64,000 nt of DNA from positions 27,300 to 91,299 of the forward strand of contig CAZIVR010000002.1 of NCBI GenBank assembly GCA_964542745.1, written 5' to 3'. Of the stretch, positions 5,865 to 44,207 are shown in pieces (the stretch's first letter is position 1; each line of letters begins with the position of its first letter). The DNA comes from an uncultured bacterium. GTDB lineage: Bacteria; Eisenbacteria; RBG-16-71-46. Both the position numbers and the translations under genes were made by a program. The notes under the pieces were generated by a model. It was not told the origin of the DNA, did no database searches, and worked only from the letters and a program-made list of their open reading frames with translations.

Positions 5865-5877
5865 CGGAGAACGAGCC

Positions 5878-11800: not shown

Positions 11801-12471
11801 ACGGCCAGGGCCAGAGCCACCTCGGGATGAAGGCCGACTCCGGGGACCTGTTCGTGCTGCAGGACATGCTCAACACCGGGATGTACGCCGCCCACGGCGG
11901 CACCGTGAGCGTGTGGGACTCGGGCTCGCGCTTCGCCGCGGCCGGCCAGAACAAGGTGACGCTCGCCGACGGCAAGACCCCCGCGCAGGGGTTCCGGTCG
12001 CTCCACTGGGGATCGCCCAACGAGTACGCGTTCGAGTACCTGATGTCGGGCGGCGACAATTCGCTGCACGTCGTGATGGGACTCCGGAAGCCCGACGCGC
12101 GCGGCGAGCTGGCGCTGCGCCCCAAGCCCTACGCCGGCAAGTTCTTCATGTCGGGTGCGGCGGCCGGCCGCGTGTTCGTGTTCGACCCGGGCGTGAAGCT
12201 CGATCCCGCCCAGTACCACGGCAACGTCCCGTCGCGGATCACTCCCGCCGAGTGGGAACGGGAGCTGGCCCCGTTCCTCGCGCGCGACGCCCGGCGGCGG
12301 GGGCTGCCGCTGCGCGTCGAGGGCGAGTTCGTGACGCTCCGGCTCGAGGGCGATTGGAAGCGCTGGCGCTACGACGAGGCGTTCGTGAAGCTGATCCCGC
12401 TCAAGGTCGCGAAGGCCGCCCAGCAGCAGGGCGTGGTGGCCCCCCAGCTCGCGCAGATCGTCGGCGAGTAG
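5878..12471 (+). CDS. Giant glutamate synthase-like protein (FMN-binding GltS domain + internal class-II amidotransferase-like domain + C-terminal GXGXG beta-helix domain; ~700 aa N-terminal region unassigned)
   Basis: 2198 aa from ATG 5878, GGAGA 7 nt upstream, 13 bp after the glnN stop. The FMN domain shows the GOGAT signatures QGAKPGKGGRLSGAKV, SPDPKHDIYSIEDMP, DAGLGGSG, ASGGIRGEVDMLKVLIAGADA and GCNQCGNCHLDCPRGGITT. The GATase-2-like block reads HHRYPTNSPAIDAEGRGNPAGAHPF...LMHNGEQ...TDTEYAAYLV. The GXGXG domain reads VGYGFVGGPRYVGTNLGD...AVYGQGQSHLGMKADSGDLFV...AAHGGTVSVWDSGSRFAAAGQN. Confidence 0.75.
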   Translation: MTPDADRQAGAPERAPLPPANGIPDAAREWEDLLALVVDPESPRVAGRARKRRLLSHLLRRAGLDEADFWKLHRGQRGRLFLSRYSRVSREIPRLEITSFDLDKLLKERYRQEPLTLGAAWHHGFWRSYFSHAAITHPANDGLREEFSTAWDIVRKHPAVLFRTGSGRERETLRGIRLDLPMIVGPLPHPGDGRIERAYLDAIADPGPGEGLHTGTLLVMDAIRYLERLEAFAGREADLLLRIPADLQPWLDGEGERFDALREALRRARIVELEWSDDLPGAVARVREVNPALLVSVYLRYGGGDEGPNGAPPPPDEALSPAAGRLAGPGFWAAVEAAARQDGVAALHVHAGPEKSYRLVPKLDAFLKARLVRARVQLVSAGGDSDTQASAATVYESVLLGANGGSMSHVAGIALCPELIDAYHGADAGAALATLAERTPEELRDLAANTLTCWQHSILDFLSCMGIDDIQKTSGNTMAITMTAEWVRECDRLATPEFGRLNAGLNAARIAAEPPPAAVRERFKVSSLLREVEPGLPRVHAARVLDHGNANYHLENSNRNLSADFLDVIYRMSAGEMPRAEDFFIESDMGPLSLDRVGLRLSRESLEWSLERFRRDPGLLDYVSLAVPRGFLRPGAAPPLCEVRLLAALDEDSDGEQVVEPAPLVRFASDAEGGFDLALAADPALEAAVAGDAPLWLVTVDAEGREARTALAAHGHGGHGLSIARASRDGAVVLRREPRGGYRLSGFGFREPIWHGPVNHSSISLGAASEDFLTARVEGNRGLSMTSSGEGGPIRLASDDDMKWESLQAASGHFGIHAADLRRVRDVEIKINQGAKPGKGGRLSGAKVTPTVSRARNIPVGTDALSPDPKHDIYSIEDMPAEVWLWLLYHNHCGIKITGSNYTRYVAAGMWSNFVVDYLLVDAGLGGSGNYHADSSHVGWPDIFRTILHTHHALVSEKVDLEKTGELKPIRDLNGAPFGAKGGTRLFASGGIRGEVDMLKVLIAGADALMEASIGKAVAFGCNQCGNCHLDCPRGGITTKAELTMQNDRALMRRRFRNWTALNMVKLAILVDALNRESGALAADGAVADAGALLSDIRALRGRTDLLAMPDHGASERPARPEADHDSCRVGSLAVSEPVTVDAIWESARLSYNGGNNRGGGIDFAGFAPAPLRERTCLIFNTIGPDRADTMREMLGHLAGCRFFDAAGRERTAQEVREGLAAYRVPVRERYAHETGWRDADLRENPGDFYMFFVGLAPSVLRRYGRALVASPHWLQRRTQYGDLSEDSLHAALDAAAAAEEAAGAERPAGAADDAGAAPGSAAGGPAPRERLEAFVADVREEYFSALAHLVDTRYYRTHLPPPGPGGAPAPEGKYAAKRRGFVVSMGEDLGAIKMSGWTHTIPEYFDFERFWAGYPGAGPEGVEVRVKGATRRTTALHAHAWGMHHRYPTNSPAIDAEGRGNPAGAHPFKAYNVLLMHNGEQVGVDSTSPFLNEFGYVHADPSMGEGHALYHGDSIYERKALTDTEYAAYLVDFTRRVLGLSTEEASQVISPITGLDLAAMDDARRELLTLLMTNYVQLTPTGPYKFTIVESRRGPAGRVIGFRENMDIKFLRPHEILVSRDASAGGVTAVANGSEAKIADSMLRVLHRQGVLGDAAADLRFSMRPGGNPGRRDFGGVFEAFTSPGSGAIELRNRFGEDVPVDRAGAKVDLARPLADAVAGASPEWARLVSERLEQLGRLLDGAGGMSAGRLFGPDDLLPAPASELVEAALERALELSFDDLRLLAESALPAFAAAGDARRAAAIRVLTELRKRFAFADLGGKSLSSVEYLVDGGRDAAGAPEGGLARLFDAVPPLFEVLRRPPGGTRYARLTLGTRDDLSPPGNAARDVLVVDFAGFESESFGLDSASRIVSRAVRLGWRNLVGYGFVGGPRYVGTNLGDARGVAAPGVVIELYGREFGDFIGALLEGASIAVYGQGQSHLGMKADSGDLFVLQDMLNTGMYAAHGGTVSVWDSGSRFAAAGQNKVTLADGKTPAQGFRSLHWGSPNEYAFEYLMSGGDNSLHVVMGLRKPDARGELALRPKPYAGKFFMSGAAAGRVFVFDPGVKLDPAQYHGNVPSRITPAEWERELAPFLARDARRRGLPLRVEGEFVTLRLEGDWKRWRYDEAFVKLIPLKVAKAAQQQGVVAPQLAQIVGE

Positions 12472-12552
12472 GCGCCTCGCGGCGACGCGCGGAGCCTGTT
12501 AGCTTTGCCCGCGCCGCACGATGACGGACCCATCCGCCCCGAGGAGTCTTCG

Positions 12553-13848
12553 ATGACCGTTCCCGCGTCCTCCGCCGCACCCGCGGTGACCGACCACTCG
12601 CTCTCGCGCCTCGCGCGCGGCATGGTGGGATCCGAGGTGCTCCGCATCGCCGCCGAGGTGCGCGCCGCGATCGCCGCCGGAAAGCCGATCTGCAACCTCA
12701 CGGTCGGCGACTTCGACCCGAAGGAATTCCCGCTGCCCGCGCCGCTGGTCGCCGGGATCAAGCGCGCGCTCGACGCCGGACACTCGAACTACCCGCCCTC
12801 GAACGGCATCCCCGAGCTGCGGAAGAGCGTGGTCGAGTTCTACCGCCGCGAGCTCGGCCTCGATTTCGGCGTGGATTCGGTGGTGGTGGCGGGCGGGGCG
12901 CGGCCACTCATCTACGCGACCTACCGCACGCTGGTGGACCCGGGGGAGCACGCCGTGTTCCCGGTGCCCTCGTGGAACAACAACCACTACGCGTACCTGA
13001 CCGGCGCGCGCGCGGTGGCGCTCGAGGTCAGGCGCGAGCACGGCTTCCACCCCACGCCCGAGCAGGTCGCGGCGCAGCTCCCGACCGCCCGCCTCGTCGC
13101 GCTCTGCTCGCCGAGCAACCCCACCGGCACCGCGATCGGGTCCGCCGCCCTCGCGGAGATCTGCCGGGCGATCGTGGCCGAAAACGAGAAGCGTGCCGCG
13201 AAGGGCGAACGGCCCGTGTTCCTGATGTACGACCAGGTCTACTGGGCCACCGCCTTCGGCGAGGCGAAGCCGGCGATGCCGACCGCGCTGGTGCCGGAGG
13301 TCGCCCCCTACACCGTGCTCATCGACGCGATCTCCAAGTCGCTCGCCGCGACCGGCCTGCGGGTGGGCTGGGCGGTCGCCCACCCGGCGGTGATGAGCCG
13401 CATGTCGGACTTCCTCGGCCACGTCGGCGCGTGGGCGCCCAAGCCGGAGCAGGTCGCGACCGCCGAGTTCCTCGCGGACGCCGCCGCGTTCGCCGAGCAC
13501 CGCGCCTCGATGGAGCGCCGCCTGCGCGAGCGGCTCGAGGCGCTGGCGGCCGGTTTCCGGCGCCTCCGCGAGCGCGGCGTCGCGGTCGAGGCCACCGAGC
13601 CCGAGGGCACGCTCTACCTGTCGGCCCGCTTCCCCCTCGGCGTCACGGCGCGTGGCCGGGAGCTTCGCACCAACGAGGACGTGCGGCGGCTGCTGCTCGA
13701 GGAGGCCGGGCTCGCGGTGGTGCCGTTCCAGGCGTTCGCGCTTCCCGACGAGGGCGGCTGGATGCGGCTCTCGGTGGGCGCGGTGTCCCTGCGCGCGATC
13801 GAGGACGGCATGGCGCGGCTCGGGCAGGTGATGGAGGGGGCGAGGTAG
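12553..13848 (+). CDS. Class I/II PLP-dependent aminotransferase (aspartate aminotransferase-like)
   Basis: PLP-lysine motif SKSLAATGLRVGW plus NPTGT. ATG 12553 with GAGGAG 6 nt upstream. Confidence 0.8.
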   Translation: MTVPASSAAPAVTDHSLSRLARGMVGSEVLRIAAEVRAAIAAGKPICNLTVGDFDPKEFPLPAPLVAGIKRALDAGHSNYPPSNGIPELRKSVVEFYRRELGLDFGVDSVVVAGGARPLIYATYRTLVDPGEHAVFPVPSWNNNHYAYLTGARAVALEVRREHGFHPTPEQVAAQLPTARLVALCSPSNPTGTAIGSAALAEICRAIVAENEKRAAKGERPVFLMYDQVYWATAFGEAKPAMPTALVPEVAPYTVLIDAISKSLAATGLRVGWAVAHPAVMSRMSDFLGHVGAWAPKPEQVATAEFLADAAAFAEHRASMERRLRERLEALAAGFRRLRERGVAVEATEPEGTLYLSARFPLGVTARGRELRTNEDVRRLLLEEAGLAVVPFQAFALPDEGGWMRLSVGAVSLRAIEDGMARLGQVMEGAR

Positions 13849-13869: not shown

Positions 13870-14361
13870 GTGAGCCGATTCACCGTGACCGCGTGGGTGC
13901 TGGGCGGGCTCTTCGGCCTCGCCGCCGGGATCGGCGGCTTCACGTTCATGTACGCCGAGGGCGCCTCCTACCTCGGGCACGACTCGGCCGCGTGCGCCAA
14001 CTGCCACGTCATGCGTGAGAACTACGACGGCTGGCTCAAGTCGAGCCACCGGGCGGTGGCGGAGTGCAACGACTGCCACACCCCGCACGAGCCGGTCCAG
14101 AAGTACGTCACCAAGGCGATCAACGGATTCAACCACTCGACCGCATTCACCACCGGGCGCTTTCACGAGCCGATCCGGATCAAGCGATGGAACCGCGAGA
14201 TCGTCGAGCGCGCCTGCCGCCACTGTCACGGGGACATCGTCGAGGCGATGGTTTCGGGCGAGGGCCCCCACGGGGGCGCCGGCGCCGAAGTTTCCTGCGT
14301 CCGCTGCCACGGGTCGGTGGGGCACTCCGATCCGGGCTTCGCGGCCCAACCGGGGAGGTAG
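13870..14361 (+). CDS. nrfH: Cytochrome c nitrite reductase small subunit NrfH (NapC/NirT tetrahaem quinol dehydrogenase)
   Basis: 163 aa with an N-terminal TM helix and four CxxCH motifs (CANCH, CNDCH, CRHCH, CVRCH). GTG 13870 follows GGGAGGGG. Confidence 0.8.
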   Translation: MSRFTVTAWVLGGLFGLAAGIGGFTFMYAEGASYLGHDSAACANCHVMRENYDGWLKSSHRAVAECNDCHTPHEPVQKYVTKAINGFNHSTAFTTGRFHEPIRIKRWNREIVERACRHCHGDIVEAMVSGEGPHGGAGAEVSCVRCHGSVGHSDPGFAAQPGR

Positions 14362-14363
14362 GC

Positions 14364-15779
<1,416 letters not shown>

Positions 15780-20868: not shown

Positions 20869-22376
20869 GAGCACCTCGCGCGAGTGCGGAGGTGGGGCCC
20901 GCCGCTCGTCACCGGCACGAACTCCTTGTGGCCCTTGCCGCAGGTGCCGGGCTCCAGCTCGAAGTCGTTCGCGATCTTCGTGATGTTGGAGAGGATCTCC
21001 GGCACGTAGCCGGTCACGGTGACCGGGGAGAAGATCCGCCCGGTGGGCTTGCCCTTCCGGTACTCGCGGGCGACGTTGGCCGTGAACTGGATGCCCCAGC
21101 CCTGCGGGTCCTCGATGCCGTTGCGGAATCCCTCGAGCACCATGCCGTCCTCGAGGTCCGCGAGCAGCTCGGCGGGCTCGCTCGTGCCGCGCGCGAAGAA
21201 CGTGTTGGACATGCGCGCGTACACCTTGCGGTCCCACGCCTGCGCCCGGCCGTTCGGGGTGCGCGGCGTGCCGAGCACGGTGGCCGACATGAGATCGGTG
21301 AGGGGCCGCACGAACACTCCGTCCTCGATGATGGTGGTGGGCGCGGCCAGCACCCCCTCGTCGTCGAAGGGGTACGAGCCGCGCGCGCCCGCGATCGAGG
21401 GATCGTCGAGCAGCGTGACGATCTTCGAGGCCACCGGCTTGCCGAGGAACTCGCGGGCCTTGGCCCGGTCCTTCACGAACTGGTCCATCTCGACGCCGTG
21501 CCCGAAGCTCTCGTGCGCGAGCAGACCCGACACCGGGGGCGAGAGCACCACGTCGTACTCCCCGGCGGGCATGGGCTCGGCCCCGAACGACTCCGCGAAC
21601 TCCCGGCGCATGCGCTCGACCTGCGCGTCGGTGAGCGCGGCGAGTTCGAGCCCGCCCTGGCCGGTGCGCCGCGCGAAGCCGAACCCCGGCTTGCCCTGGT
21701 CGAAGCCGAACAGCAGGACGTTGTGCGACACCATGGTGCGCTGGCTCGCGAGCCGGCGCGTCGGATCCACGAACAGGCGCCGCACGTCCACGACCTCGGT
21801 GCTGACCCGCACGCTCCGCACCCGCGGGTCGTCGAGGTTCACGCGGTCGAATTCCGCGTCCACCGCCGCCACGCGCTCGGCGAGCGGGACCGCCGCGGGG
21901 TCGCGCTGCCCGCGCTCGCTCCAGCTCCGGACCAGCGGCGGCAGCGGCGCGATGCGGTGGAGCGCCTTGCCGGCGGGCACGTCGCGGAGCAGGCCGCGCG
22001 CGGCCTCGCGGAGCGCGTCGCGGGAGGTGCCGCCCACACCCGCCTCGTGGAACACGGCGCCGTCGAACACGCGCAGGGTCACGCCGCGCGAGGGGAAGCC
22101 CGCCTCGCTGACGCGCTTCCCGTTCCGGTCGCGGCTGATGCTCACGCCGGCGCTGGACATGAAGAGCGCCGAGGCGTAGGGGAATTTCCGGCGGAGGTCG
22201 GCCACGATGGCGGCCAGATCGTCGCCGAGCGTTCCGGGGAAGCCGTCGCCGGCGGGCGGCGCGGCACGGCCTTCGCGAGCGAAGAGGATCTGCTCGGCGA
22301 GGGACCCCGCGACCAGCACGCCGGCGAGCGACGCGCCGCCGCGCAGCAGGAATTGGCGACGATCGAGCGGAACCAT
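20865..22376 (-). CDS. tldD: TldD family metalloprotease with twin-arginine (Tat) signal peptide
   Basis: HESFGHGVE (HExxxH) motif. The N-terminus MVPLDRRQFLLRGGASLAGVLVAGSLA carries an RRxFL Tat motif. Confidence 0.7.
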   Translation of the reverse strand: MVPLDRRQFLLRGGASLAGVLVAGSLAEQILFAREGRAAPPAGDGFPGTLGDDLAAIVADLRRKFPYASALFMSSAGVSISRDRNGKRVSEAGFPSRGVTLRVFDGAVFHEAGVGGTSRDALREAARGLLRDVPAGKALHRIAPLPPLVRSWSERGQRDPAAVPLAERVAAVDAEFDRVNLDDPRVRSVRVSTEVVDVRRLFVDPTRRLASQRTMVSHNVLLFGFDQGKPGFGFARRTGQGGLELAALTDAQVERMRREFAESFGAEPMPAGEYDVVLSPPVSGLLAHESFGHGVEMDQFVKDRAKAREFLGKPVASKIVTLLDDPSIAGARGSYPFDDEGVLAAPTTIIEDGVFVRPLTDLMSATVLGTPRTPNGRAQAWDRKVYARMSNTFFARGTSEPAELLADLEDGMVLEGFRNGIEDPQGWGIQFTANVAREYRKGKPTGRIFSPVTVTGYVPEILSNITKIANDFELEPGTCGKGHKEFVPVTSGGPHLRTRARCS

Positions 22377-22656
22377 GGGGGCGCACGGTACGCGGCCGGA
22401 CCCCCGGGTCTCAACCCCTCCGGACCTGCGTGCCGTGGCGCGGGACGAGCGCGGGGGAGGGCGCCGCGGGAATCGGGCCCGATCCCCCGGGGGGCCTGGG
22501 CCGTGCGGATACCGCTTTCCGCGCCGGGCGATCCCGCGTAGACTCTTCGCCGTTCTTCCCGCCCGCATCCACGGTGCCGGCCCCAGCGGGCCGGCGCTCG
22601 AATTCAATGACCGGCCCTCCGCCGCGGGGCTGCTTCCGGAAAGGCACGTCCCCGTC

Positions 22657-24843
22657 GTGCGCCAGCCTCTCGCGCTGCTCCTCGCGTCGTTCCTCGGCCT
22701 CTCCGGCTTCGCCGGCGCCGCCCGCGCCGACCTCATCCTCTCCGAGCTCTGCGACCCGCAGAACAACTACCAGACCGACCGGTTCATCGAGATCTTCAAC
22801 TCGGGGCCGGGCTCCGTGAACCTCACCGGCTGGTCGGTGATCGCGGTCGCCAACAACGTCGAGGTGACGACGTGGAACCTGTCCGGGACGATCGCCGCCG
22901 GGCAGGCGCTGGTGTGCGGGAACAACTCCACCGTGACCGGGTTCACCGTGAACTTCCAGAACGCCCAGTGGGGCAGCTCGGGCTACTTCAACTGGAACGG
23001 GAAGATCGGCGACGGGGCGCGCCTCAAGAACGGCGCGACGCTGGTGGACCAGGTGGTGGCGCCCGGCGACCTGTTCGAGAACAAGACCCTGGTGCGCAAT
23101 TCCAACATCAGCGTGCCGACCACGGTCTACAACGCGTCCGAGTGGACCGCGACCGCGAAGATCCTCGCCACCGACGCCACGCCCGGCTCGCACAACGGTT
23201 CGCTTCCGCCGGCGGCGGGCCCGGTGATCGCGAACATCTCGACCTTCCCGGCGAGCCCCGCGGCGGGCAACCCGGTCACCGTGAGCGCGACGGTCGTGGA
23301 CACCGCCGGCCCGGTCTCCTCGGTGACCCTCGACTGGGGCTTCTCGTCGGGCTCGCTGGGCAACGCGATCAACATGTCGCTGATTTCGGACAGCACCTAC
23401 ACGGCCGACTCCGCGATCCCCGGCCAGTCCGCCGGGGTCTCGGTCTACTACCGGATCTCAGCGACCGGTCCCGCCCAGACCAGCCAGTCCAACGTGCGCA
23501 GCTACACGATCCCGGGGACGAGCGGGGCCCCGACGATCCTGGCGGTGGGGCAATTGAGCGACTCGACGCTGCTCGTCAGCTTCAGCGAACCGGTGCAGGA
23601 GGCGAGCGCGGAGGTGGCGTCGAACTACACGGTGGGCGCGCTGGTCGCGGTGAACGCGGTGTGGGACCCGGCGCGCACCGCCGAGGTGACGATCACGGTG
23701 CGGAACATCCCGCCCGGCTCGCGCACCCTGACCGTCACGGGCGTGCAGGACCTCGACGGCAACCCGACCTCGGGCGCGACCAAGGGCTTCACCTACGTGG
23801 ACGTGACCATTCCGGCCGGCTACTACGCGAGCACCACCGGCCTCCGGGGTTCGGCGCTGCGCGTCGCGCTCCACAACCTGATGAAGAACCACACGGTGCA
23901 GAGCTACTCGTACGCGCTGACCGCCTTCGCCACCACCGACCTCCAGCCCAACGGCAAGATCTGGGACATGTATTCCGACGTGCCCGGCGGCACGCCGCCC
24001 TACACGTACAACTGGGGCGACACCGGGCAGGGAGCGACCGAGGGGCTCGGCTACAACCGCGAGCACACCTGGCCGCAGTCGTGGTTCAACAGCAGTTCAC
24101 CGATGGTCTCGGACCTCTGGAACCTGTTCCCGAGCGACGCCAAGGTGAACGGGTACCGCGGCAACTACCCTTACGGCGACGTGGGCACGGCGACCATCAC
24201 GTCGCTGAACGGCAGCAAGGTCGGCCCGAACATCAGCCCCGGCTACACCGGCACCGTGTTCGAGCCGATCGACGCGTACAAGGGCGACCTCGCGCGCTTC
24301 CACCTCTACATGTCCACCCGCTACTTCGGGCAGGACGCCGGCTGGCCCGGCAGCGCGTCCACGAACGGAGCCGAGTTCGAGCCGTGGGCGCTCACGCTCT
24401 ACCGGCAGTGGCACGCCGCCGACCCGGTGAGCTGGAAGGAGCGCCTGCGCAACGGCGCGATCTACACGATGCAGAACAACCGGAACCCGTTCGTGGACCA
24501 CCCGGAGTTCCTCGAGATGATCTGGGACTCGACCGCGGTAACCGGGGTCGGGAGCCCGCTCGCGGGCGCGCTCCAGCTCCGCAATTCGCCGAACCCGTTC
24601 GCGGGACGCACCGCGATCGGCTTCGACCTGCCCCGGGCCGAGCGCGTCGCGGTGGACATCTTCGACGTCACCGGGCGCCGGGTGCGCGCGCTGGCCGCGG
24701 GCCTCCGGCTCGAGCCCGGCACCCACGTGCTCGAGTGGGACGGTCGCGACGCCGACGGACGCTCGCTCGACCCGGGCCTCTACTTCTGCCGTCTCCACGC
24801 GGGGAACGCGAGCGAGACGAAACGGATGGTGCTCGCGCGCTAG
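22657..24843 (+). CDS. Secreted nuclease: lamin-tail domain + endonuclease I family domain + C-terminal sorting-type (T9SS/FlgD-Ig-like) domain
   Basis: Signal peptide MRQPLALLLASFLGLSGFAGAARA from GTG 22657. Lamin-tail domain (LTD) block LILSELCDPQNNYQTDRFIEIFNSG...NLTGWSV. Endonuclease-I blocks NREHTWPQSWF and NRNPFVDHPEF. The C-terminus LRNSPNPFAGRTAIGFDLPRAERVAVDIFDVTGRRV...GLYFCRL resembles Por_Secre_tail / FlgD Ig-like domains. Confidence 0.65.
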   Translation: MRQPLALLLASFLGLSGFAGAARADLILSELCDPQNNYQTDRFIEIFNSGPGSVNLTGWSVIAVANNVEVTTWNLSGTIAAGQALVCGNNSTVTGFTVNFQNAQWGSSGYFNWNGKIGDGARLKNGATLVDQVVAPGDLFENKTLVRNSNISVPTTVYNASEWTATAKILATDATPGSHNGSLPPAAGPVIANISTFPASPAAGNPVTVSATVVDTAGPVSSVTLDWGFSSGSLGNAINMSLISDSTYTADSAIPGQSAGVSVYYRISATGPAQTSQSNVRSYTIPGTSGAPTILAVGQLSDSTLLVSFSEPVQEASAEVASNYTVGALVAVNAVWDPARTAEVTITVRNIPPGSRTLTVTGVQDLDGNPTSGATKGFTYVDVTIPAGYYASTTGLRGSALRVALHNLMKNHTVQSYSYALTAFATTDLQPNGKIWDMYSDVPGGTPPYTYNWGDTGQGATEGLGYNREHTWPQSWFNSSSPMVSDLWNLFPSDAKVNGYRGNYPYGDVGTATITSLNGSKVGPNISPGYTGTVFEPIDAYKGDLARFHLYMSTRYFGQDAGWPGSASTNGAEFEPWALTLYRQWHAADPVSWKERLRNGAIYTMQNNRNPFVDHPEFLEMIWDSTAVTGVGSPLAGALQLRNSPNPFAGRTAIGFDLPRAERVAVDIFDVTGRRVRALAAGLRLEPGTHVLEWDGRDADGRSLDPGLYFCRLHAGNASETKRMVLAR

Positions 24844-24903: not shown

Positions 24904-25620
24904 ATGAAACTCCAGGTCGCCTGCCGCCTCGCCCTCCTCGGCCTCGCGCTCGGCGGGCTCACCCTCCACGCCCCGCCCGCCCGCGCGGGAGCGATGTCCT
25001 CGCTCGCCACGTGCACCGGCGCGCAGGAGGTCACCTTCTCGTGGGACTGGTACGAGTTCGAGTCCTACGTCACCAACCGGCCCGAATGGGTGGGCTACGA
25101 CGTGATGCGGCGCTCCGTCACCCAATGCACTCCCTACCAGCGGCTCAACGCGCAGCCGATTGCCCGCACCGTGGGCCTTTCGCACTCGCGCCAGTTCGTG
25201 GACGCGACGGTGCAGGTGGGCCAGACCTACGAGTACCGGGCGATCCCCGTGGACGCCAACCGCGTCGCCGTGGTCATGAGCTTCCCGGATTGCGAGCCGC
25301 CGTGCGTCAAACCGGCGTGGGCGAGCTGCCCCGCGGCCTCGGCCCCGCTCACGATCGGCAGGCTCGAGGACTGGGGCTGGGCGCTCCACGTGTCGCCGTG
25401 CCCCGGGTCCTGCTACTTCGGTTTCTATTTCGACGGCCCGGTGGCCAGCGACCTCCGGGCGCAGGGCCGGGTCGGGACCGACGTCAGCCTTTACGGCACG
25501 GGCTGGTGCTGCGGACTGGAAGGCGCCGCGATGGACGCGGTCGCGTGGCAGCCCGCCAACTGCTCGATCACCCCCGCCCGCCGCTCCTCCTGGGGTGAGT
25601 TGAAGGTCCTCTACCGTTGA
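24904..25620 (+). CDS. Hypothetical secreted Cys-rich protein ending in [10 protein letters not shown]
   Basis: Signal peptide [23 protein letters not shown] and many Cys residues. The C-terminal tag is shared with the CDS at 42036-42827. Confidence 0.5.
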
Positions 25621-32730: not shown

Positions 32731-33314
32731 CCTTCCTCCCTGGCGCGGCGCGCGAGGGCCGCGCGCAGCTTTTCCCGAGCGCTCTGGAGCACGCTCCGGG
32801 CGCCCGAGGCGTGGGTGAGCCCGAGCAGGCGCGTGATGTCCCCGACCGGAAGCCGCTCGAAGCAGCGCAGCCAGATCGCTTCGGCCTCGAGCGGACTCAG
32901 CGACTCCTTCACCAGCGCCTCCATGGCCTCCTCCTCCTCGCGAGCCAGCAGCAGCGCGGGCGGGTCCTCGTGCTGGATCAGCAGCTCGATCGGATCGGCC
33001 CGCGGGTCCCGCCGCAGGCTCTTCGGCCTGAGCGCGGTGAGGCACTCGTTCCGCACGATCGAGAACAGCCACGACGAAAAACGGCTCTTGCCCTCGAATC
33101 CGGGCAGCGATCTCCACGCCTTGAGCAGCGAATCCTGCGCCAGGTCGAGCGCCCGCTCGTGATCCCCCACCATGCGGTAGCACCACGCGTAGGCGCGGGC
33201 CCGGTAGCGACCGAGCAGTGTCCCCGCCGCCCGCCGTCCGGCGGGCTCTCCGGGCGCCGAGCGGAACGCGCGCAGGAGGTCCTCGTCCTCCGGTTCCTCG
33301 CGCGAAGTGTTCAT
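32727..33314 (-). CDS. ECF-type RNA polymerase sigma-70 factor
   Basis: 195 aa with a sigma-70 region 2 (LDLAQDSLLKAWRSL...FSSWLFSIVRNECL) and a region 4 HTH (LPVGDITRLLGLTHASGARSVLQSAREKLRAAL). The ATG overlaps the stop of the upstream CHAT gene. Confidence 0.85.
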   Translation of the reverse strand: MNTSREEPEDEDLLRAFRSAPGEPAGRRAAGTLLGRYRARAYAWCYRMVGDHERALDLAQDSLLKAWRSLPGFEGKSRFSSWLFSIVRNECLTALRPKSLRRDPRADPIELLIQHEDPPALLLAREEEEAMEALVKESLSPLEAEAIWLRCFERLPVGDITRLLGLTHASGARSVLQSAREKLRAALARRAREEG

Positions 33315-36031
33315 CGGTTCAGACGATCCTCGGGGCCCGGCGTCAGGCGCCGCCCGACCGGAACCCGGACGCCGCCTTCCCCGGACGCCGCAAACGCGGC
33401 CCAGTTCCGGACCTGCGCGGTTTCGCGGCGGGCCCGCAGGCGGCCCTGCGCCTCGCCCACCGCCCCGGCGACCGTCGCCCCGCGCGCGAGCGCGGCGTAG
33501 AACTCGGCCATGAACCGCTCGGCGACGCGGTCCTCGACCGGCCACAGCGTGGCCACGACGCTCGAGGTGCCGGAGCAGAGGAACGCCCCGGCGAGCCCGA
33601 GGGCGCCCTCTCCGGAGAGGGTCGTGGCGCCGGCCGACTGGCAGCCCGACAGCACCGCGAGCCGGGCGCGCAGCTTCATCCCCGCGATCCGCGAGGCGCG
33701 CAGGTAGGCGCCGTCGCCCGCGCCGCGCCCGAGCAGGAAGCCCGAGCGCCACGGGCTGCCGGACACGGCCTCGGCGTGCGCCGCGAAGTGGAGCACGCCC
33801 CAGCGCGGCAGGTCGGCGATCAGCTCGGCCACGTCGAGCTCGCCGCCGTTGGCGCGCACCTCGGCCCCGAACCCGTCGCGGAGCGCGCGCAGCTCGCGTC
33901 CGACGCCGGGAAGCTCGCGGCCGCGCGCGTCGGTGGTGCGGCCCAGCGCGAGCAGCCCGCGCGGGCCGCCCGGGGCGCGCGCCGCGGCGCGCAGCGCGGC
34001 GAGCAGCGTGGCCGACGGCACGGTCGAGACCTCGCGCGACTCGCCGAGCGGCGCGGTTTCGCCCGGCGGGGCCAGCGCCGCGAGCGGCCACAGCGCGACC
34101 GGCCCGCCGCCCGAGAGGATCACGGCGCGGCTCGGGCGGATCGCGGCCGCGGCCGGCCCGAGCAGCTCCGCCGCGAGGCGGCCGAGCCCGGCGGCCACCA
34201 CGTCGTCCGCGGCGCCCGCGAGGGCGGCCTCCCTCCAGGCCGCGTGCAACCGCTCGAGCCGCGGGGCCGCCGGGAGCAGGCGCGCGCCGATGCCGCCGCG
34301 GGAAACCAGGAAGAGGAACGTGGTGTCGTCGGTCGCCACCACGTCCAGCAGCAGCTCGCCCTCCCTCAGCACCCCGCGGCGCAGCGAGTCGGCGGTGACC
34401 CGCCCGCGCATGCCGGCGCCGGCCAGGCCCCGGCCGGCGAGCCGCTCCTCGAGCGTGCGGGCCTGGAACGTCTGGAGCGCGTCGAACGCTTCGCGCGCGC
34501 GCCGGGCGGACGTTCCGCCGCGGCCCGGGTCGAGCAGCGCGAGCCCGTACTCCGCGAACAGCGAGGAGAGGCTCGCGCCCATCCGCTCCCGCCATTCGAA
34601 GTCGGATACCCCGCCGCGCCAGCGCTCCCACTGGCGGACCGCGCGCCCCAGCACCGCAACCGCGCTGTCCGGCGCCCCCAGCGCGCGGTGGCAGCGCGCC
34701 AGCTCGAGGGCGGCCTCGAGCGCGAACGGCGACGCCTCGCGCGCGGCGCGGGCGCCGCGCTCCGCCGCGCGCGCCTCGGGCAGGGCTTCCCGCGCCCGGC
34801 CCTGGGCGCGGCGGGCGGCGCTTCGTTCGACGCGCGCGGCGTGCAGGTCGTCGCGCGACAGCTTCGCGCGCGCGCCCGGGGCGAGCAGCGAATCCATGAG
34901 CCGCTCGGACTCGGCGGCGCGGCCGGTCTCGCGGAGCAGCGCGGCCAGGTCGAGGGCCGAACCCTCCCGGATCAGGGCGTCGTCCACGGCCGCGGCGCGC
35001 AGCGCCCGGTAGATCCGCTCGGCCTCGGCCGAGCGGCCGAGCCGGCGCTGGAGCAACGCCTGCTCGCCCAGCACGGCCAGGAGCACGCCGGGATTGCCCT
35101 CCCGCTCGGCGTCGGTCCGCAGCCGCTCGAGCAGCGCGCGCGCCTCGTCGAGGCGGCCGATCGAGCGCAGCGCGTGGGCCCGGTTCACGCGCGCGCTGAT
35201 CGCGCTCGCCCGGTTCTCGGCGCTGTCGAAGGCCGCCGCCGCGTACTCCCAGTAACGGTCGGCGAGCGAGGCGTCCCCGCCCAGGAACTCGAGGTTGCCG
35301 AGATCGTTGAGCGTCGCCGCCTCGGTCCACCGGTCCCTGCGGATCCGCGCCTCGTCGAGCAGCACCAGGAACGTGTCGCGCGCCTCGTCGTGGCGGCCGA
35401 CGCGGTTCTCCACCTCGGCCAGCAGGAAACGCGTGTGCCGGCTCTCGAAGCGGTCGCGGGGCAGCAGCCGGACCGCCTCCCCGAGGTGGCGGCGCGCGTC
35501 GGCGTAGCGGCCGTCCTCCTTCGCGATGAAACCGAGCCCGCGGTGGGCGAACCCGAGGATCCCGGGCAGGCCCGCGGCGCGGGCGAGCGGCACCACGCGC
35601 TCGTACTCGCGCCGCGTCTCCGCGAGCCGGCCCATCACGTTGGCGCCGTGCGCCCGGGCCGCGAGGACGCGGGCCAGCCCCGCGCTGTCGCGGAGGGCGA
35701 GCGCGAGCGTCCACGCCGTGTCGAGATCCGGCTTCGCTTCGTCGATCCGGTAGAAGTTGGCGAGCTTGCGGCCGCGCCACAGGTGCACGGCGGTCCGCAG
35801 CGTGCGGTCGCGGGAGGCCCGCGCCGAGCGGATCAGCGAGTCGCAGTAGTCGGAGGCCCCCTCGCGAGACCGGTTCCAGACCGAGTCGGCGGCCGGCGTG
35901 ATCTCCGCGAGGCGGCGCTCGACCGGCCAGTGCCGGGAGCGGTCGGGAAGCGGGCCCGTGGCGAGCGCCGCGGGCGCGCCGAGCAACGCGCAACCGACGA
36001 GGAGCGTGAGGGATGACGGGAGTCGGCGCAT
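33311..36031 (-). CDS. TPR-repeat + CHAT-domain (caspase-like) protein with signal peptide
   Basis: Signal peptide MRRLPSSLTLLVGCALLGAPAALA. Long TPR-like helical repeats. The C-terminal CHAT domain carries a His/Cys dyad context (LHFAAHAE...LAVLSGCQSAG). Confidence 0.7.
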   Translation of the reverse strand: MRRLPSSLTLLVGCALLGAPAALATGPLPDRSRHWPVERRLAEITPAADSVWNRSREGASDYCDSLIRSARASRDRTLRTAVHLWRGRKLANFYRIDEAKPDLDTAWTLALALRDSAGLARVLAARAHGANVMGRLAETRREYERVVPLARAAGLPGILGFAHRGLGFIAKEDGRYADARRHLGEAVRLLPRDRFESRHTRFLLAEVENRVGRHDEARDTFLVLLDEARIRRDRWTEAATLNDLGNLEFLGGDASLADRYWEYAAAAFDSAENRASAISARVNRAHALRSIGRLDEARALLERLRTDAEREGNPGVLLAVLGEQALLQRRLGRSAEAERIYRALRAAAVDDALIREGSALDLAALLRETGRAAESERLMDSLLAPGARAKLSRDDLHAARVERSAARRAQGRAREALPEARAAERGARAAREASPFALEAALELARCHRALGAPDSAVAVLGRAVRQWERWRGGVSDFEWRERMGASLSSLFAEYGLALLDPGRGGTSARRAREAFDALQTFQARTLEERLAGRGLAGAGMRGRVTADSLRRGVLREGELLLDVVATDDTTFLFLVSRGGIGARLLPAAPRLERLHAAWREAALAGAADDVVAAGLGRLAAELLGPAAAAIRPSRAVILSGGGPVALWPLAALAPPGETAPLGESREVSTVPSATLLAALRAAARAPGGPRGLLALGRTTDARGRELPGVGRELRALRDGFGAEVRANGGELDVAELIADLPRWGVLHFAAHAEAVSGSPWRSGFLLGRGAGDGAYLRASRIAGMKLRARLAVLSGCQSAGATTLSGEGALGLAGAFLCSGTSSVVATLWPVEDRVAERFMAEFYAALARGATVAGAVGEAQGRLRARRETAQVRNWAAFAASGEGGVRVPVGRRLTPGPEDRLNR

Positions 36032-36288
36032 GGCGAGGGCGCGGCCCTTCGGGCGCCGGCACGGCGATCGGCGGGTCCGCGGGGCGAGGGTAGCACGGGG
36101 TGGGTGGACGTGGCCCAAATCCCGCCGGGCCCGCGCCGTGGATCACCGCTCCGGCCGGGTTCGAGCGGCGCGGCGACCACCGGACTCCGGTCGCGGCTGA
36201 TTTCCGGAGACCCAGGTCGTCACAGGGGCACGGCCAGACGGGCGAGGGCCGCCGCCCGTCCGAGGCCGACCCCAGGTGGAGGTCGCTC

Positions 36289-38271
36289 ATGAGCCCATTC
36301 GGCAGCATTCCGCCGCGCGCCGCGCGGCGGTGGCTGGTCGCCGCGGCGATCGCCGCGGCCGCGCTCGGGCTCGCCTCGTGCGGCGGGAAGTCGAGCCCGG
36401 CCGCCCCCGACGCGGGCCCGGGACCGGGCCCGGGACCGGGCCCCGGCGGCGGATCGTCGCCCGGGGACAGCGCGCGCTGGGCGGTGATCGACGGGGCCTC
36501 GAGCCTCTATCACTCGCTGCGCGGCGACCCGACGCGCGACGCGGCGACGCTCGCCTACCTCACGGCCCAGCCCAACGTGGAGGCCGCCGGGGTCTCGGAC
36601 TCGCTCGACAACCTGTGGGCGCGCTTCGACGACGAGCGCCTGCTGCTCCTGATCGACAACCGGCTGCCCGCCGTGCCCGTGCCGCCCTCGCCGGCGCGCG
36701 AGGGGCAGCGGCGGCTCGCCGAGCGCCTCGCCATGCCGCCGCCGCTCGGGAGCGAGCTTCCGGTCTCCGACAAGGCGCGGCTGATGAACTCGCTCGAGCC
36801 GAGCTGGCACTCGTCGGTGGGGCCGATCGGGACCATGCTCGGCACTTCGGGCTACGCCGTCTCGACGCCGGCTTCGGGGCTCGCCGAGCTCGCCGCGGTG
36901 CAGGGGGACGGGGTCTTCTACTGGGCGTCGCACGCGGGCGAGGGCAACGACCGGCAGGGAAACGGCGTGTTCGGCATCTGGACGCAGTCGCTGTGCGACT
37001 CGGTGCGCGACCGGGTGAGCCCGGTGTCCGGGCACTGGGGCGCGAAGGAGATCTGCTACGCCTGCACCGGCGTCTACCAGCCGGACGGCAGCGTCCGGAA
37101 CGAGTGCCACTACGCGATCACCCCCGAGTTCATCCGCAACAAGATGAGCTTTTCGGCCAACAGCCTCGTCTACATCGACGCCTGCACCTCGGCCAAGCAG
37201 GAGGTGCGCGACGCGTTCTTCGCCCGGGGCGCGGGCCTCTACTGCGGCTGGGACGTGCTCACGTCCGGGAGTTCGTGGATCGTCGGGGAGACGCTCTTCG
37301 ACCTTCTCTGCGGCGCCGACCACGTGGTGCCGCAGACGCCGCGCCAGCGGCCGTTCCTGTTCGACTGGGTGCGCGAGTGGATGGTGAGCCAGCAGAAGAA
37401 CCGGGACCCGGGGGGCACGGCCCGCCTCTACATGAACCGCAACCCCACGAACCCGACCTTCGGACTGCTGCGGCCCACGATCTTCCGGCTGTTCGTCCAC
37501 AACGCCCCCTCCGACCCCCAGGACTACCTGGAGATCGAGGGCGACTTCGGGCTCGATCCCGGGGCGGCGAACCGCGCGGTCACGATCGGAGGCGTGGCGC
37601 TCACCGGCGTGGTGTGGGGCGAGCACCTGATCACCGTGCCCCTGCCGCTCACCGGCGCCTCGTCCCACGGCGACGTGACCGTGAGCGTGCGCGGGCACCT
37701 GAGCAACGTCGCGCAGCTCACCCGCTGGGTGGTGCCGTTCGTCTACCGCCGTTACGGACCCGGCTCGCTCCAGCAGGAGATCCACGCGAACTACGTGGTG
37801 CGCGGCGACGCCAGCAACTACCGCAACATTCCCTACGCCATCCCCAACGGCTTCCCGCACGCCGTGGTCTCCAGCAAGGCCAGCGGGGGGTCGTTCCTGA
37901 TGAGCGGCATCTACCGGCCCGACCCGGACCACTACATCAAGTGGCTGGGTTCCGGAACGCTCGGCGCGCCGACGACGATCCCGCAGGCCACGCAGCCGGG
38001 GCACGTGCTCGGCGCGGGAAACCTCAACCCCGGCGCGCGCACCATCGCCTCGTTCCAGCCGCAGGCCTACGCGACCTACACCATCGAGACCGAGTCGAGC
38101 AGCTCCACGGCGACCGCGTCGATCTCGCCGTTCACCACGGTCACGCTCACGTTCGGCACGAACTACGTGATCCGGGCGGACAGCACGAGCGTTTCCCTCT
38201 CGGACGGCAGCGCCACGCTGCGCTGGGGGCCGGCCACCCCGGCCGCGCCGTTCAACGACGGCGGGCGCTAG
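36289..38271 (+). CDS. Hypothetical lipoprotein
   Basis: Lipobox LGLASC in MSPFGSIPPRAARRWLVAAAIAAAALGLASCGG, followed by a GPGPGPGPGPGG linker. GGAGG 7 nt upstream of ATG 36289. Confidence 0.55.
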   Translation: MSPFGSIPPRAARRWLVAAAIAAAALGLASCGGKSSPAAPDAGPGPGPGPGPGGGSSPGDSARWAVIDGASSLYHSLRGDPTRDAATLAYLTAQPNVEAAGVSDSLDNLWARFDDERLLLLIDNRLPAVPVPPSPAREGQRRLAERLAMPPPLGSELPVSDKARLMNSLEPSWHSSVGPIGTMLGTSGYAVSTPASGLAELAAVQGDGVFYWASHAGEGNDRQGNGVFGIWTQSLCDSVRDRVSPVSGHWGAKEICYACTGVYQPDGSVRNECHYAITPEFIRNKMSFSANSLVYIDACTSAKQEVRDAFFARGAGLYCGWDVLTSGSSWIVGETLFDLLCGADHVVPQTPRQRPFLFDWVREWMVSQQKNRDPGGTARLYMNRNPTNPTFGLLRPTIFRLFVHNAPSDPQDYLEIEGDFGLDPGAANRAVTIGGVALTGVVWGEHLITVPLPLTGASSHGDVTVSVRGHLSNVAQLTRWVVPFVYRRYGPGSLQQEIHANYVVRGDASNYRNIPYAIPNGFPHAVVSSKASGGSFLMSGIYRPDPDHYIKWLGSGTLGAPTTIPQATQPGHVLGAGNLNPGARTIASFQPQAYATYTIETESSSSTATASISPFTTVTLTFGTNYVIRADSTSVSLSDGSATLRWGPATPAAPFNDGGR

Positions 38272-38277
38272 GGGGCG

Positions 38278-40383
<2,106 letters not shown>

Positions 40384-40385
40384 CG

Positions 40386-41603
40386 TCAGCCCGCGAAGAG
40401 CTGGAGGTCGGTGCCGAAGCGGTCGGCGATCTCGATGCAGCGGTCGAGTTCGGCGTGCCGCACGATCACCATGCCGTCCGAGATCAGCGTCTGCATCGGG
40501 TCGCGGCGCGGGGCGCCCACCGGCAGCAGGTCCACCACGCACACGTGGGGGCCGTACTCGGCCATCAGCCGGCCGAGCCCCTCGATGCGCTGGATGCGCC
40601 CCTCGCCCTGCGCGCGCTTGAAGACGGAGGCGCAGTTGTACTTCCGCGTCACCGGTTCGTGCAGCCGTCCGCGCAGGGCGGCCTCGGCCCAGCCGCGGAA
40701 CAGGTCGGTGTCGCTCGCGAAGTTCATGATGTCCACGGTGTAGGCGCCGGGCGGGCGCGCGGCGATCTCGCCGAACACCGCCTCGCCATCGGCCTTGCGG
40801 TGCCATTCCATGTGCGTGAACCCGGTGCGGAAGTTCATGGCCTCGAGCACGGCGAGGCCGAGCTTCTTCCCGTTCTCGAGGTACGGCACGTCGGGGTCCT
40901 TGAGCGCGACGGTCTGCGGGCTCACCCACAGCAGCGTGCGCGACACCAGCGGGCGCGGCCGGTAGGCGCAGATGTTGTAGAACAGGACCTTGCCGTCGGC
41001 GCACACCGTGTCGAACGTGAACTCCTCGCCCTCGATGAACTCCTCGACGCTCACGTGGGGCACGTGGCGCGTCAGTTCGAGCACGCGCTTCAGCTCGGCC
41101 GCGTCGTTCACCCGGTGGGTGTCGGCCGAGCCCGCCCCGGCGATGGGCTTGAGGATCGCGGGGTAGCCGATGCGCTCGATCGCGGCCTCGACCTCGGCCA
41201 CGGTGTGGGCCCGCGCGTGGCGCGGCACGCGGATCCCCGCGCCGTCGAGGACCTGCTTCATGGTCTCCTTGTCGCGGAACGGCACGGTCTCGGCGACGGT
41301 CATGCCCGGGAGCCCGAGTTGCTCGCGCACGCGCGCCGCCAGCACCATGAGCGGCTCCCAGAGGCACTCGACCTGGTGGATGCGCACGCGGTTCGCGAGG
41401 TCCCGGACCTGCGCGAGCACCGCGTCCTCGTTCGCGAAGCCGCCGCACTGCACGTACATCGCGAGATTTCGCCGCGCGACCTCGGGGAGCGCCGACTCGT
41501 GCTGGTCCCCGAGCCCGATCACGCGCGCGCCGGCCTCGGCGAGGCCGCGGGTGAACTTGGGGCTCTCGGGGGGATATCCGGGGGAGAGGTAGAGGACGTT
41601 CAT
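40386..41603 (-). CDS. ATP-grasp domain ligase (paralog 1 of 3)
   Basis: 405 aa. The N-terminus MNVLYLSPGYPPESPKF is shared with paralogs 2 and 3. An ATP-grasp core is present (GYPAILKPIAGAGSADTHRV...EEFIEGEEFTFD). Confidence 0.7.
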   Translation of the reverse strand: MNVLYLSPGYPPESPKFTRGLAEAGARVIGLGDQHESALPEVARRNLAMYVQCGGFANEDAVLAQVRDLANRVRIHQVECLWEPLMVLAARVREQLGLPGMTVAETVPFRDKETMKQVLDGAGIRVPRHARAHTVAEVEAAIERIGYPAILKPIAGAGSADTHRVNDAAELKRVLELTRHVPHVSVEEFIEGEEFTFDTVCADGKVLFYNICAYRPRPLVSRTLLWVSPQTVALKDPDVPYLENGKKLGLAVLEAMNFRTGFTHMEWHRKADGEAVFGEIAARPPGAYTVDIMNFASDTDLFRGWAEAALRGRLHEPVTRKYNCASVFKRAQGEGRIQRIEGLGRLMAEYGPHVCVVDLLPVGAPRRDPMQTLISDGMVIVRHAELDRCIEIADRFGTDLQLFAG

Positions 41604-42035
41604 CGGTGTTCGCAATGTCGCACGGGCCGCCCCGCGGCCACAAACCGCCGCCTCGCGCCGCCGCAACGGCCTGACGCCGAGTCCCTTGCACGATTCCCGA
41701 TTCCGTCGTTGACAGCGGCGTGCCGGGGGCGCAGGTTGCGGACGGCGAGAGGCGGCGTGCGCAGGGCCCCGAAACCGCCGCGCGCGCCGCTTCGCCACGG
41801 GGGAACTGTGCCGCCGCCCCACGAGCCACGGAACGTCCATCCGCGGGCTCGGTCGCTGCCCCGACGTCCAGCCGCGGGTTCCGATCGTCGCCGGGCCGCT
41901 CCGTGCCCGGTTCCTCCGCCCGCCCGCGCGCCCCCGGATCCCGCGTCCCGCCTCGCGCCCCGCGCGAACCGTCAGGGACGACCCCTCGGAAGATGGATCT
42001 CGCGCCGCAACCTTTCCGAGACTCGGAGGTGAGTC

Positions 42036-44100: not shown

Positions 44101-44207
44101 GAAGGTCCGGTAGTCTATCCACCCTTTCCGCGGCATGGCAATGCCGCGAGCTCCCGCGCGCACCCGCCGCGGCGCGCACCGCTCCCACCCCCACCGCGAC
44201 CCCGCCC

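Follow-up and report, generated by a model that had tools for sequence, protein, structure and literature searches.

Two secreted proteins encoded on a 64,000-nucleotide stretch of DNA from an uncultured bacterium of the lineage Eisenbacteria (contig CAZIVR010000002.1 of assembly GCA_964542745.1, positions 27,300 to 91,299; hereafter the window, with a GC content of 73.9%) share a short C-terminal tail, which we analyzed as a candidate sorting signal. Both proteins, P0001 and P0044, end in SWGx[IL]KxLYR followed by the stop codon. This 10-residue core is preceded by a hinge, and hinge and core together are referred to as the tag. The features of the two genes and the evidence for them are:

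24904-25620, + strand: gene of P0001, 238 aa with 11 Cys, a tagged Cys-rich secreted protein (family 1; open reading frame (ORF), 43 homologues)
24904-24987, + strand: predicted Sec signal peptide of P0001, then GA (read from the sequence; AlphaFold2 (AF2) helix at residues 2-20)
25567-25587, + strand: hinge of tag site 1, ITPARRS (tail logo, lineage flavours, predicted local distance difference test score (pLDDT) of AF2 <50 at residues 223-229)
25588-25617, + strand: core of tag site 1, 10 residues, stop at 25618-25620 (sequence; low-confidence AF2 helix at residues 230-237)
42036-42827, + strand: gene of P0044, 263 aa, a tagged secreted DUF7450 (PF24247) protein (ORF and Pfam match)
42036-42113, + strand: predicted Sec signal peptide of P0044, MKRWTTPLLFLSLLAAALLAPTGALS, then QH (read from the sequence; AF2 helix at residues 6-18)
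42771-42794, + strand: hinge of tag site 2, PPTGTRPG (tail logo, AF2, profile comparison)
42795-42824, + strand: core of tag site 2, SWGRIKTLYR, stop at 42825-42827 (sequence; AF2 helix at residues 255-262, pLDDT about 62)

Similarity between P0001 and P0044 was confined to the last 14 residues in BLASTP, and when the two family profiles were compared with hhalign, nothing but their last 18 columns aligned (probability 95%, E 3e-8). This agrees with the original prediction, which had described a common C-terminal decapeptide on two unrelated secreted proteins with no other similarity and with Sec signal peptides on both; the latter were recognizable as signal-peptide-like N-termini in the sequences and as N-terminal helices in the AF2 models. 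No Pfam or NCBIfam family matched P0001, and P0044 belongs to Pfam family DUF7450 (70.5 bits at a cutoff of 27). The C-terminus of P0044 reads ...PPTGTRPGSWGRIKTLYR-stop, with the hinge following the last DUF7450 strand (...EYLLVPSEK), and the hinge of P0001, the Eisenbacteria flavour of P-[VT]-P-[VT]-[ER], directly follows C220, the last Cys of the fold. The span initially proposed for site 1, 25585-25620, does contain the core and the stop codon, and it also takes in one extra Ser codon; the conserved unit proved longer, with about 17 residues at 25567-25617. A six-frame search of the window with WG.[ILVM]K.[ILVM][YF] returned just these two sites, each one residue before a stop, and the degenerate DNA pattern for tag plus stop gave two matches compared with 0.00 expected from 100 dinucleotide-preserving shuffles of the window. 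Since the two tag DNAs diverge at synonymous sites (TCC/AGC, GGT/GGA, CTC/CTG and CGT/CGC), the similarity is kept at the protein level and does not stem from a recent DNA copy.

Conservation of the tail extends throughout both families, for which 43 homologues of P0001 (33-65% identity) and 129 of P0044 (120 of them listed, at 40-71% identity) were found, one homologue being named Candidatus Eisenbacteria. An internal position of the motif in homologues had been named beforehand as an observation that would speak against a signal; nearly every full-length homologue of both families has [ST]WGx[ILV]Kx[ILM]YR at its end, apart from fragments, two read-throughs and rare single substitutions (LYK, LYH, LVR and TWS/TWD). 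The family-1 homologues P0021 and P0006 extend beyond the tag (...LKLVYRSPPAGEPP... and ...TWGELKTIYRQR); these extensions are likely frameshift, stop-loss or assembly variants, and database entries can have residues after the tag. In the family alignments the Trp of the tag is invariant and its Gly, Lys, Tyr and Arg are at least 90% conserved, and the folds average 49-54% column identity.

The GTDB collection was scanned, with one genome per species, for the degenerate DNA pattern [ST]WG-x-(NTN)-K-x-(HTN)-Y-R(CGN)-stop. This yielded at least 120 loci, comprising about 0.84 Mb, with 127 strictly tagged ORFs, and when relaxed endings were admitted 136 tagged ORFs were present in 114 of the loci listed. 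The 115 called tagged genes among these loci fall into at least 73 unrelated sequence clusters, so that the second observation named in advance as adverse, a restriction of the motif to the two window proteins, does not apply. By record title, the matches listed include at least 33 loci from Candidatus Eisenbacteria, six to seven from Krumholzibacteria/Krumholzibacteriota, five to six from Latescibacteria/Latescibacterota, one from Zixibacteria, about nine from metagenome-assembled genomes (MAGs) of Fibrobacteraceae or Fibrobacter sp., two from one 'Gemmatimonadota' MAG and about 50 without classification. A few loci lie on 2-4-kb contigs of MAGs with unexpected labels. All well-labelled tag lineages belong to the Fibrobacteres-Chlorobi-Bacteroidetes (FCB) group. 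No convincing Bacteroidota match was present among the 120 listed loci, an absence that is only suggestive because the pattern required CGN Arg codons and is biased against low-GC lineages. By extrapolation, the tag would be present on roughly 3% of genes; this estimate derives from two tagged genes among about 45 real genes of the window and from the 22 tagged ORFs in the 0.84 Mb that exceed one per locus, the latter value being inflated by tandem paralogues. In the IMG/VR viral collection the same DNA pattern matched 10 contigs (L124, L126-L130, L132 and L133 among them), eight of which encode ORFs of 33-301 aa with the typical hinge and tag at the end (e.g. ...VPSPVDEETWGRVKALYR). These contigs may stem from phages or prophages whose hosts use the tag, or they may have been misclassified.

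That the common ending arose by coincidence, or is a structural element of the folds without signal function, is hardly credible. Nothing beyond the shortness of the motif speaks for coincidence, and it is refuted by the two observed compared with 0.00 expected matches in the window, the number of unrelated clusters, the conservation of flanking positions that the scan pattern left free, and the small share of listed scan matches that look like chance (about five to six of 120, with ORFs of 12-62 aa or an in-frame stop).

Alignment of 114 tails anchored at the C-terminus defined a unit of about 17 residues, (C)-P[VT]P[VT][ER]-xx-[ST]WGx[IV]K[SA][LMI]YR-COOH, which consists of a Pro/Thr-rich hinge and the 10-residue core. 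Among the positions not fixed by the scan pattern, Pro was found at -17 in 42 and at -15 in 61 of the 114 tails, Val or Thr at -16 in 87 and at -14 in 77, Glu or Arg at -13 in 68 and Ser or Ala at -4 in 82, while position -11 is Thr, Ser or Ala and a Cys is present at positions -18 to -20 in 56 tails. All 133 occurrences of [ST]WG.[ILVM]K.[ILMF]Y in six frames of the 120 loci and the window lie one to two residues before a stop codon, with none internal. Variant endings include ...[IL]FR, LYAK, LYRR, LYKN, LYRD and VYRK, and the conserved Lys at -5 is occasionally replaced by Arg (P0040 and P0089).

The flavour of the tag tracks the lineage or genome and not the passenger family, as would be expected if a trans-acting reader co-evolves with it. 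Genomes labelled Eisenbacteria have the basic hinge P-T-P-[AT]-[RK], which includes both window proteins, and Krumholzibacteria, Latescibacteria and others have the acidic P-V-[PS]-[VT]-E. In genome F1F2.bin.167 the form K-G-[LI]-[YF]-R occurs in three unrelated families, and locus L077 of this MAG (JBJXGV010000065.1, 1649-6328) contains an array of six or seven paralogous lipoprotein genes (lipobox ...LGC/GCGDDD), all members of which end in the genome-specific variant [ST]WGx[IL]K[GC][IL][FY]R.

In the AF2 models, which were computed with the family alignments of P0001 and P0044 (mean pLDDT 89 and 91, respectively), both folds stop about 10-18 residues short of the C-terminus and are followed by a low-confidence linker and then a short helix over WG...LY, with a pLDDT of about 49 in P0001 and the somewhat higher value given above in P0044. 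The tail thus lies outside both folds and at low pLDDT, which speaks against the explanation by coincidence or fold structure. The fold of P0001 weakly resembles two FN3-like beta-sandwiches, and structure comparison gave no credible PDB neighbour for P0044. The core has a mean hydrophobic moment (muH) of 0.54 compared with 0.40 +/- 0.18 for shuffles (22% of which reach 0.54) and a mean hydrophobicity of -0.07, and a transmembrane (TM)-like stretch (15-mer with a Kyte-Doolittle value >=1.8) was detected in the last 45 aa of only one of 117 tagged proteins.

The helix could also be taken for an in-plane amphipathic anchor of the PBP5/6 or MinD/FtsA type that would tether exported proteins to the periplasmic face of a membrane without any machinery. 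The predicted short helix, with W, I/V, L and Y on one face and K/R flanking them, is consistent with such an anchor, and so is the lack of a conserved partner gene reported below. We nevertheless regard it as improbable, since the amphipathicity is unremarkable, the hydrophobicity is low and the helix comprises only eight to nine residues. In addition, the conservation is specific for residues (W-G, K and Y-R) and for position, unlike that of lipid-binding helices, which tends to argue against this anchor; the conserved Pro-rich hinge would have no role in lipid binding, the already anchored lipoproteins of the L077 array carry the tail as well, and its flavours co-vary with the genome.

The proteins that carry the tag are diverse and mostly predicted to be exported. 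A hydrophobicity heuristic assigned a signal-like hydrophobic N-terminus to 89 of 99 full-length tagged proteins compared with 202 of 462 neighbours; the median length of the tagged proteins is about 240 aa and lipoboxes are rare. Pfam searches with 113 tagged proteins identified 26 families, the majority of the proteins having no match at all. The matches include Beta_helix (7), LTD (5), NosD, NHL, PD40, CHRD, the thioester domain (TED), Cleaved_Adhesin, Big_1, PPC, pectate lyase, carbohydrate-binding modules (CBMs) and DUF4114, so that the passengers, as far as their domain matches indicate, are modules typical of surface or extracellular proteins.

Six tagged proteins align with the passengers of proteins that have a type IX secretion system (T9SS) C-terminal domain (CTD), with E values of 1e-9 to 1e-42, and these alignments stop short of the tag by 15-35 residues and of the CTD protein's end by about 100. 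The same replacement was found among relatives of P0044. A profile hidden Markov model (HMM) search with DUF7450 returned 3556 representatives at E<=1e-3 (50% identity level), and the ends of the 147 newly returned ones among the best 150 of these were tallied. About 50 of the 147 have the strict tag and about 13 have variants with one to five extra residues. A T9SS type A CTD forms the end of 16 (in P0168 and P0170 TIGR04183 scores above cutoff) and a dockerin-like module that of at least 12; one (P0205) has a PEP-CTERM end (TIGR02595 above cutoff), and two more have TM-plus-basic tails. In the CTD-bearing forms ...EYLFVPSxK is followed by a linker and the CTD at the very place where ...EYLLVPSEK of P0044 is followed by hinge and tag. 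This 'choice-of-anchor' pattern is taken by NCBIfam curators as evidence for localization modules. On the basis of these comparisons tag, CTD, dockerin and PEP-CTERM are interchangeable in evolution at the same slot; tag and CTD are mutually exclusive, with none of 117 proteins having both. DUF7450 proteins (P0164-P0310) often contain two to eight tandem repeats within 500-2600 aa, and the multi-repeat proteins end in dockerin-like, Cys-rich, T9SS-CTD or PEP-CTERM modules, the single-domain tagged form of the window being one among several DUF7450 architectures.

CTD genes were also found next to tagged genes, as at site 1 of the window:

22207-24843, + strand: secreted Endonuclease_1, lamin-tail-domain and Ig-like protein with a T9SS type A/FlgD_ig CTD at about 24589-24840 (TIGR04183 25.3 bits at a cutoff of 23; FlgD_ig 42 bits)

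The ATG-started ORF of this gene has a 150-aa Arg/Pro-rich N-terminal extension, which is probably not translated, and the signal peptide VRQPLALLLASFLGLSGFAGAARA, then D, begins at 22657, where a GTG is likely to be the true start. A classic 82-aa type A CTD protein is encoded in 46 of the 120 listed loci. Gene calls in these loci were crude and based on GC content at third codon positions, which makes the following adjacency numbers approximate. Of 117 tagged genes, 25 lie immediately next to a CTD gene, which has the same orientation in 21 cases, and the CTD gene precedes the tagged gene in 17 of 27 adjacent pairs, with gaps of 12-270 bp and the window pair (22207-24843 and 24904-25620, gap 12-60 bp) included. 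CTD genes make up 16.5% of genes at distance 1 and 1.4% at distances of 4 or more (Fisher p = 0.003 for distance 1 compared with >=2). Tandem duplication with anchor swapping was considered as the cause of this adjacency and ruled out, as 26 of the 27 pairs are non-homologous.

These observations raise the question of a direct link to T9SS, a more specific form of the localization-signal reading, in which the tail would be a minimal non-CTD peptide for the T9SS shuttle or translocon, or a hitch-hiker that docks onto CTD cargo or its shuttle; in the hitch-hiker version, the small tagged protein would be co-exported or co-anchored. The confinement of all well-labelled tag lineages to the FCB group, the frequency of type A CTD proteins in the listed loci and the mostly co-directional, CTD-first and non-homologous pairs favour such a link, as do the small size of tagged compared with large CTD proteins and the hydrophobic-hydrophobic-[KR]-COOH ending common to both. 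The tag further resembles the type A CTD in its C-terminal position on Sec-exported, otherwise unrelated surface or extracellular proteins, in its presence in the same genomes with clustered genes and in its use of the same slot on homologous passengers. However, a T9SS CTD folds as an Ig-like beta-sandwich of 60-100 aa that contains motifs B (PNPF), D (GxY) and E, and the tag consists of about 17 residues forming a hinge and a helix of eight to nine residues, without motifs B and D or a beta-sandwich. None of the CTD models (TIGR04183, PF18962 and PF13860) matched P0001 or P0044 at E<=1, although the CTD gene of the window, as positive control, does match; nor did these models appear when 25 of the 26 families matched by the 113 tagged proteins were listed, and the CTD-type expression NPF...G[VI]YF was found in none of 117. 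Known CTDs are far longer, with about 100 aa for type A and 150-235 aa for type B (PMC12618676), and even the 'short' Prevotella CTDs, at about 60 aa, still accommodate motifs B, D and E (PMC11969387). A truncated CTD was rejected as origin of the tail, the CTDs in the same loci being of the classic 82-aa type A and having no PxPxE/WG motif before them. Moreover, a CTD gene is lacking next to about 79% of tagged genes and next to homologues P0024, P0016 and P0002, and Bacteroidota, the main T9SS phylum, gave no convincing match among the 120 listed loci with a pattern that needed CGN Arg codons. Overall, we consider a direct T9SS link somewhat unlikely.

The tail also differs from the remaining known C-terminal signals. 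No Pfam-A or NCBIfam (release 20) model covers it, including searches with ten 42-aa tails at E<=10, a PDB search with the tail profile gave no matches at E<=10, and a literature search found no paper on it, which bears out the initial impression that the tag is not among the described ones. With the exosortase, archaeosortase, rhombosortase and sortase signals (PEP-CTERM, GlyGly-CTERM, MYXO-CTERM, PGF-CTERM and LPXTG) it shares a short, often Pro-containing motif near the C-terminus of unrelated exported proteins, lineage restriction, dispersed genes and the same slot in 'choice-of-anchor' families such as that of the PEP-CTERM protein P0205. Those signals, however, are tripartite, with a motif, a TM helix and a basic cluster, whereas the tag has no hydrophobic segment and only 10 residues after the hinge; curated NCBIfam CTERM models (PEP-CTERM, GlyGly-CTERM, MYXO-CTERM and others) did not match the tail, and control P0205 matched TIGR02595. 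Dockerins are likewise C-terminal non-catalytic modules that place diverse secreted proteins via a partner and occupy the same slot in DUF7450 relatives, but they are duplicated Ca-binding folds of about 60-70 aa, and the tag is a 17-aa linear peptide without D-x-N-x-D-G repeats.

Among shorter signals, the beta-signal of the beta-barrel assembly machinery (BAM) has a terminal aromatic residue and a strand of alternating hydrophobicity on a beta-barrel, in contrast to a tag that ends in Arg, is predicted to be helical and detached, and is carried by FN3-like, beta-helix, LTD and propeller passengers. Peroxisomal targeting signal type 1 (PTS1) peptides, which are read by the TPR receptor PEX5, and the anchors of PBP5 and MinD are very short, located at the extreme C-terminus on a flexible linker and read after folding, and in this they offer a mechanistic analogy to the tag. 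PTS1 functions in another compartment and in other organisms and has, like the C-terminal amphipathic anchors, no sequence relation to the tag, and the anchor helices show no residue-specific conservation. The Braun lipoprotein Lpp ends in Tyr-Arg-Lys and is attached to peptidoglycan via the terminal Lys by L,D-transpeptidases; it resembles the tag in having ...Y-R(-K)-COOH on an exported envelope protein, and differs in that the tag ends in Arg and has its conserved Lys at -5. A beta-signal, an Lpp-like YRK signal and a PDZ ligand were rejected on the basis of the terminal Arg and the detached helix. As judged from these comparisons, the tail seems to lack the defining features of every family considered and yet to be like them in distribution and position.

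The genomic surroundings did not point to a dedicated machinery. The co-occurrence of a sortase, protease or exosortase gene had been suggested as a check, and no candidate co-localizes with the tag in the 120 loci or among the 137 immediate neighbours. Recurrent neighbours are merely generic (ABC ATPase, Ser/Thr kinases, TolB-like proteins and response regulators), and Pfam searches with the immediate neighbours identified 225 families, the commonest of which, TPR, occurred five times. Nothing obviously relevant lies beside either tagged gene in the window, whose genes include those for an LLM oxidoreductase, an ABC-F protein, an SNF2 helicase and two ATP-grasp proteins as well as glgB and glgA. 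The paralogous ATP-grasp genes (40386-41840 and 42880-44226, both on the - strand) flank the tagged DUF7450 gene, with a glycogen-branching-enzyme-like ORF (38278-41829 frame) on one side of them and a glycogen-synthase-like gene (44208-45689) on the other; no such arrangement was found around the DUF7450 homologue P0106, and an ATP-grasp gene is present near the family-1 homologue P0022. Ordinary metabolic genes of the window include those for a cytochrome c552 (NrfA-type pentahaem nitrite reductase; 14064-15779, + strand) and for a 2280-aa ORF with a glutamate-synthase central domain (5629-12471, + strand), the latter having a class I/II aminotransferase gene (12505-13848) after it.

TPR repeats and a CHAT (caspase-like, clan CD) protease domain are combined in a probable lipoprotein (lipobox LLVGC) encoded at 33311-36118 on the - strand; its gene is divergently adjoined by that of a 723-aa probable lipoprotein without Pfam match (36100-38271, + strand). 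The TPR and CHAT protein was considered as reader or protease of the tag. It is encoded next to neither tagged gene, no homologue of it occurs in the 120 loci, and it is retained only as a speculative lead. More generally, the tail might be a proteolytic or quality-control tag that is read by a periplasmic C-terminal protease or a PDZ/TPR protein for maturation, regulated degradation or stress sensing. The near-terminal position, a Pro-rich hinge that could be a cleavage site and the presence of the TPR and CHAT lipoprotein in the window are compatible with this. PDZ/Tsp-type readers prefer hydrophobic C-termini, unlike the Arg at the end of the tail; it is difficult to see why about 3% of genes, with passengers resembling adhesins or enzymes, should bear a degron, the slot shared with CTD, dockerin and PEP-CTERM modules points to localization, and the CHAT-TPR protein is without homologues in the loci. 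We therefore consider such a tag very doubtful.

The tail is a genuine feature that lies at the terminus, can be separated from the fold and does not depend on the passenger. Among the loci listed it is confined to exported proteins from a set of candidate phyla of the FCB group, co-varies with the genome and clusters with T9SS cargo genes. We favour, with moderate confidence, its interpretation as a modular C-terminal localization signal that would serve the sorting or docking of proteins exported via Sec in Eisenbacteria and allied candidate phyla of the FCB group. The proposal that a conserved C-terminal decapeptide represents a sorting or processing signal thereby gains support from the comparative evidence, the slot shared with CTD, dockerin and PEP-CTERM modules and the location of the tail outside the folds. 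It is probably an undescribed, unusually short and TM-less C-terminal sorting or anchoring tag, whose mechanism and destination we infer as outlined below.

Several observations weigh against this interpretation. All-versus-all clustering of about 800 ORFs from the 120 loci revealed no conserved partner gene, and the contexts of homologues P0106, P0022, P0024, P0016 and P0002 are all unlike one another. The AF2 confidence for the tail helix is low and its amphipathicity only moderate, and the taxonomy was taken from MAG record titles, some of which are unclassified or probably mis-binned. The first gene of the L077 array (1649-2908) is a two-unit fusion in which the tag of the first unit, SSWGKIKGLFY, is now internal, and distant DUF7450 relatives have one to five residues after the Tyr of the tag (YGG, YSSMK and YRSEDK), which indicates that recognition of a free carboxylate would not be universal.

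In a mechanism consistent with a localization signal, the precursor would first cross the inner membrane via Sec, as suggested by the signal peptides on about 90% of carriers. Folding of the passenger in the periplasm would come next, in many cases with a Cys immediately ahead of the tail closing the fold, and would leave the tail exposed on its Pro/Thr-rich hinge, as predicted by AF2. A trans-acting receptor that co-evolves with the lineage might subsequently bind the helix-prone core WGx-hydrophobic-Kx-hydrophobic-YR at or near the free C-terminus; the residue-specific conservation across unrelated passengers, the near-terminal position and the flavours tracking the genome point to this step. 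Delivery to or retention at the outer membrane or cell surface, parallel to the T9SS-CTD route of the same genomes, may follow, as suggested by the occurrence of the tag in the slot of CTD, dockerin and PEP-CTERM modules on homologous passengers and by its clustering with T9SS cargo genes. The Pro-rich hinge could serve as cleavage or attachment site, by analogy with Pro-containing sorting motifs that include the PT/GI cleavage consensus of Prevotella CTDs (PMC11969387).

More tentatively, the tail may represent a new TM-helix-free sorting pathway of diderm FCB candidate phyla (Eisenbacteria, Krumholzibacteriota, Latescibacterota, Zixibacteria and relatives), which would either possess its own receptor or transpeptidase or hitch-hike on T9SS and might handle perhaps about 100 proteins per genome. 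Each of the C-terminal sorting signals LPXTG, PEP-CTERM, GlyGly-CTERM and T9SS CTD opened a secretion or anchoring pathway and provided tools for surface-proteome prediction, and the tail would be the shortest such signal in diderms and the first without a membrane helix or folded domain. If it is a portable 17-residue targeting peptide, it might be of use in surface display. Phylogenetic profiling against the tag would be a direct route to the missing machinery. With the tag marking roughly 3% of genes around the sampled loci, in uncultured phyla of unknown cell-surface biology, an HMM or regular expression for it would allow many 'hypothetical' proteins to be annotated as exported proteins of the surface or envelope.

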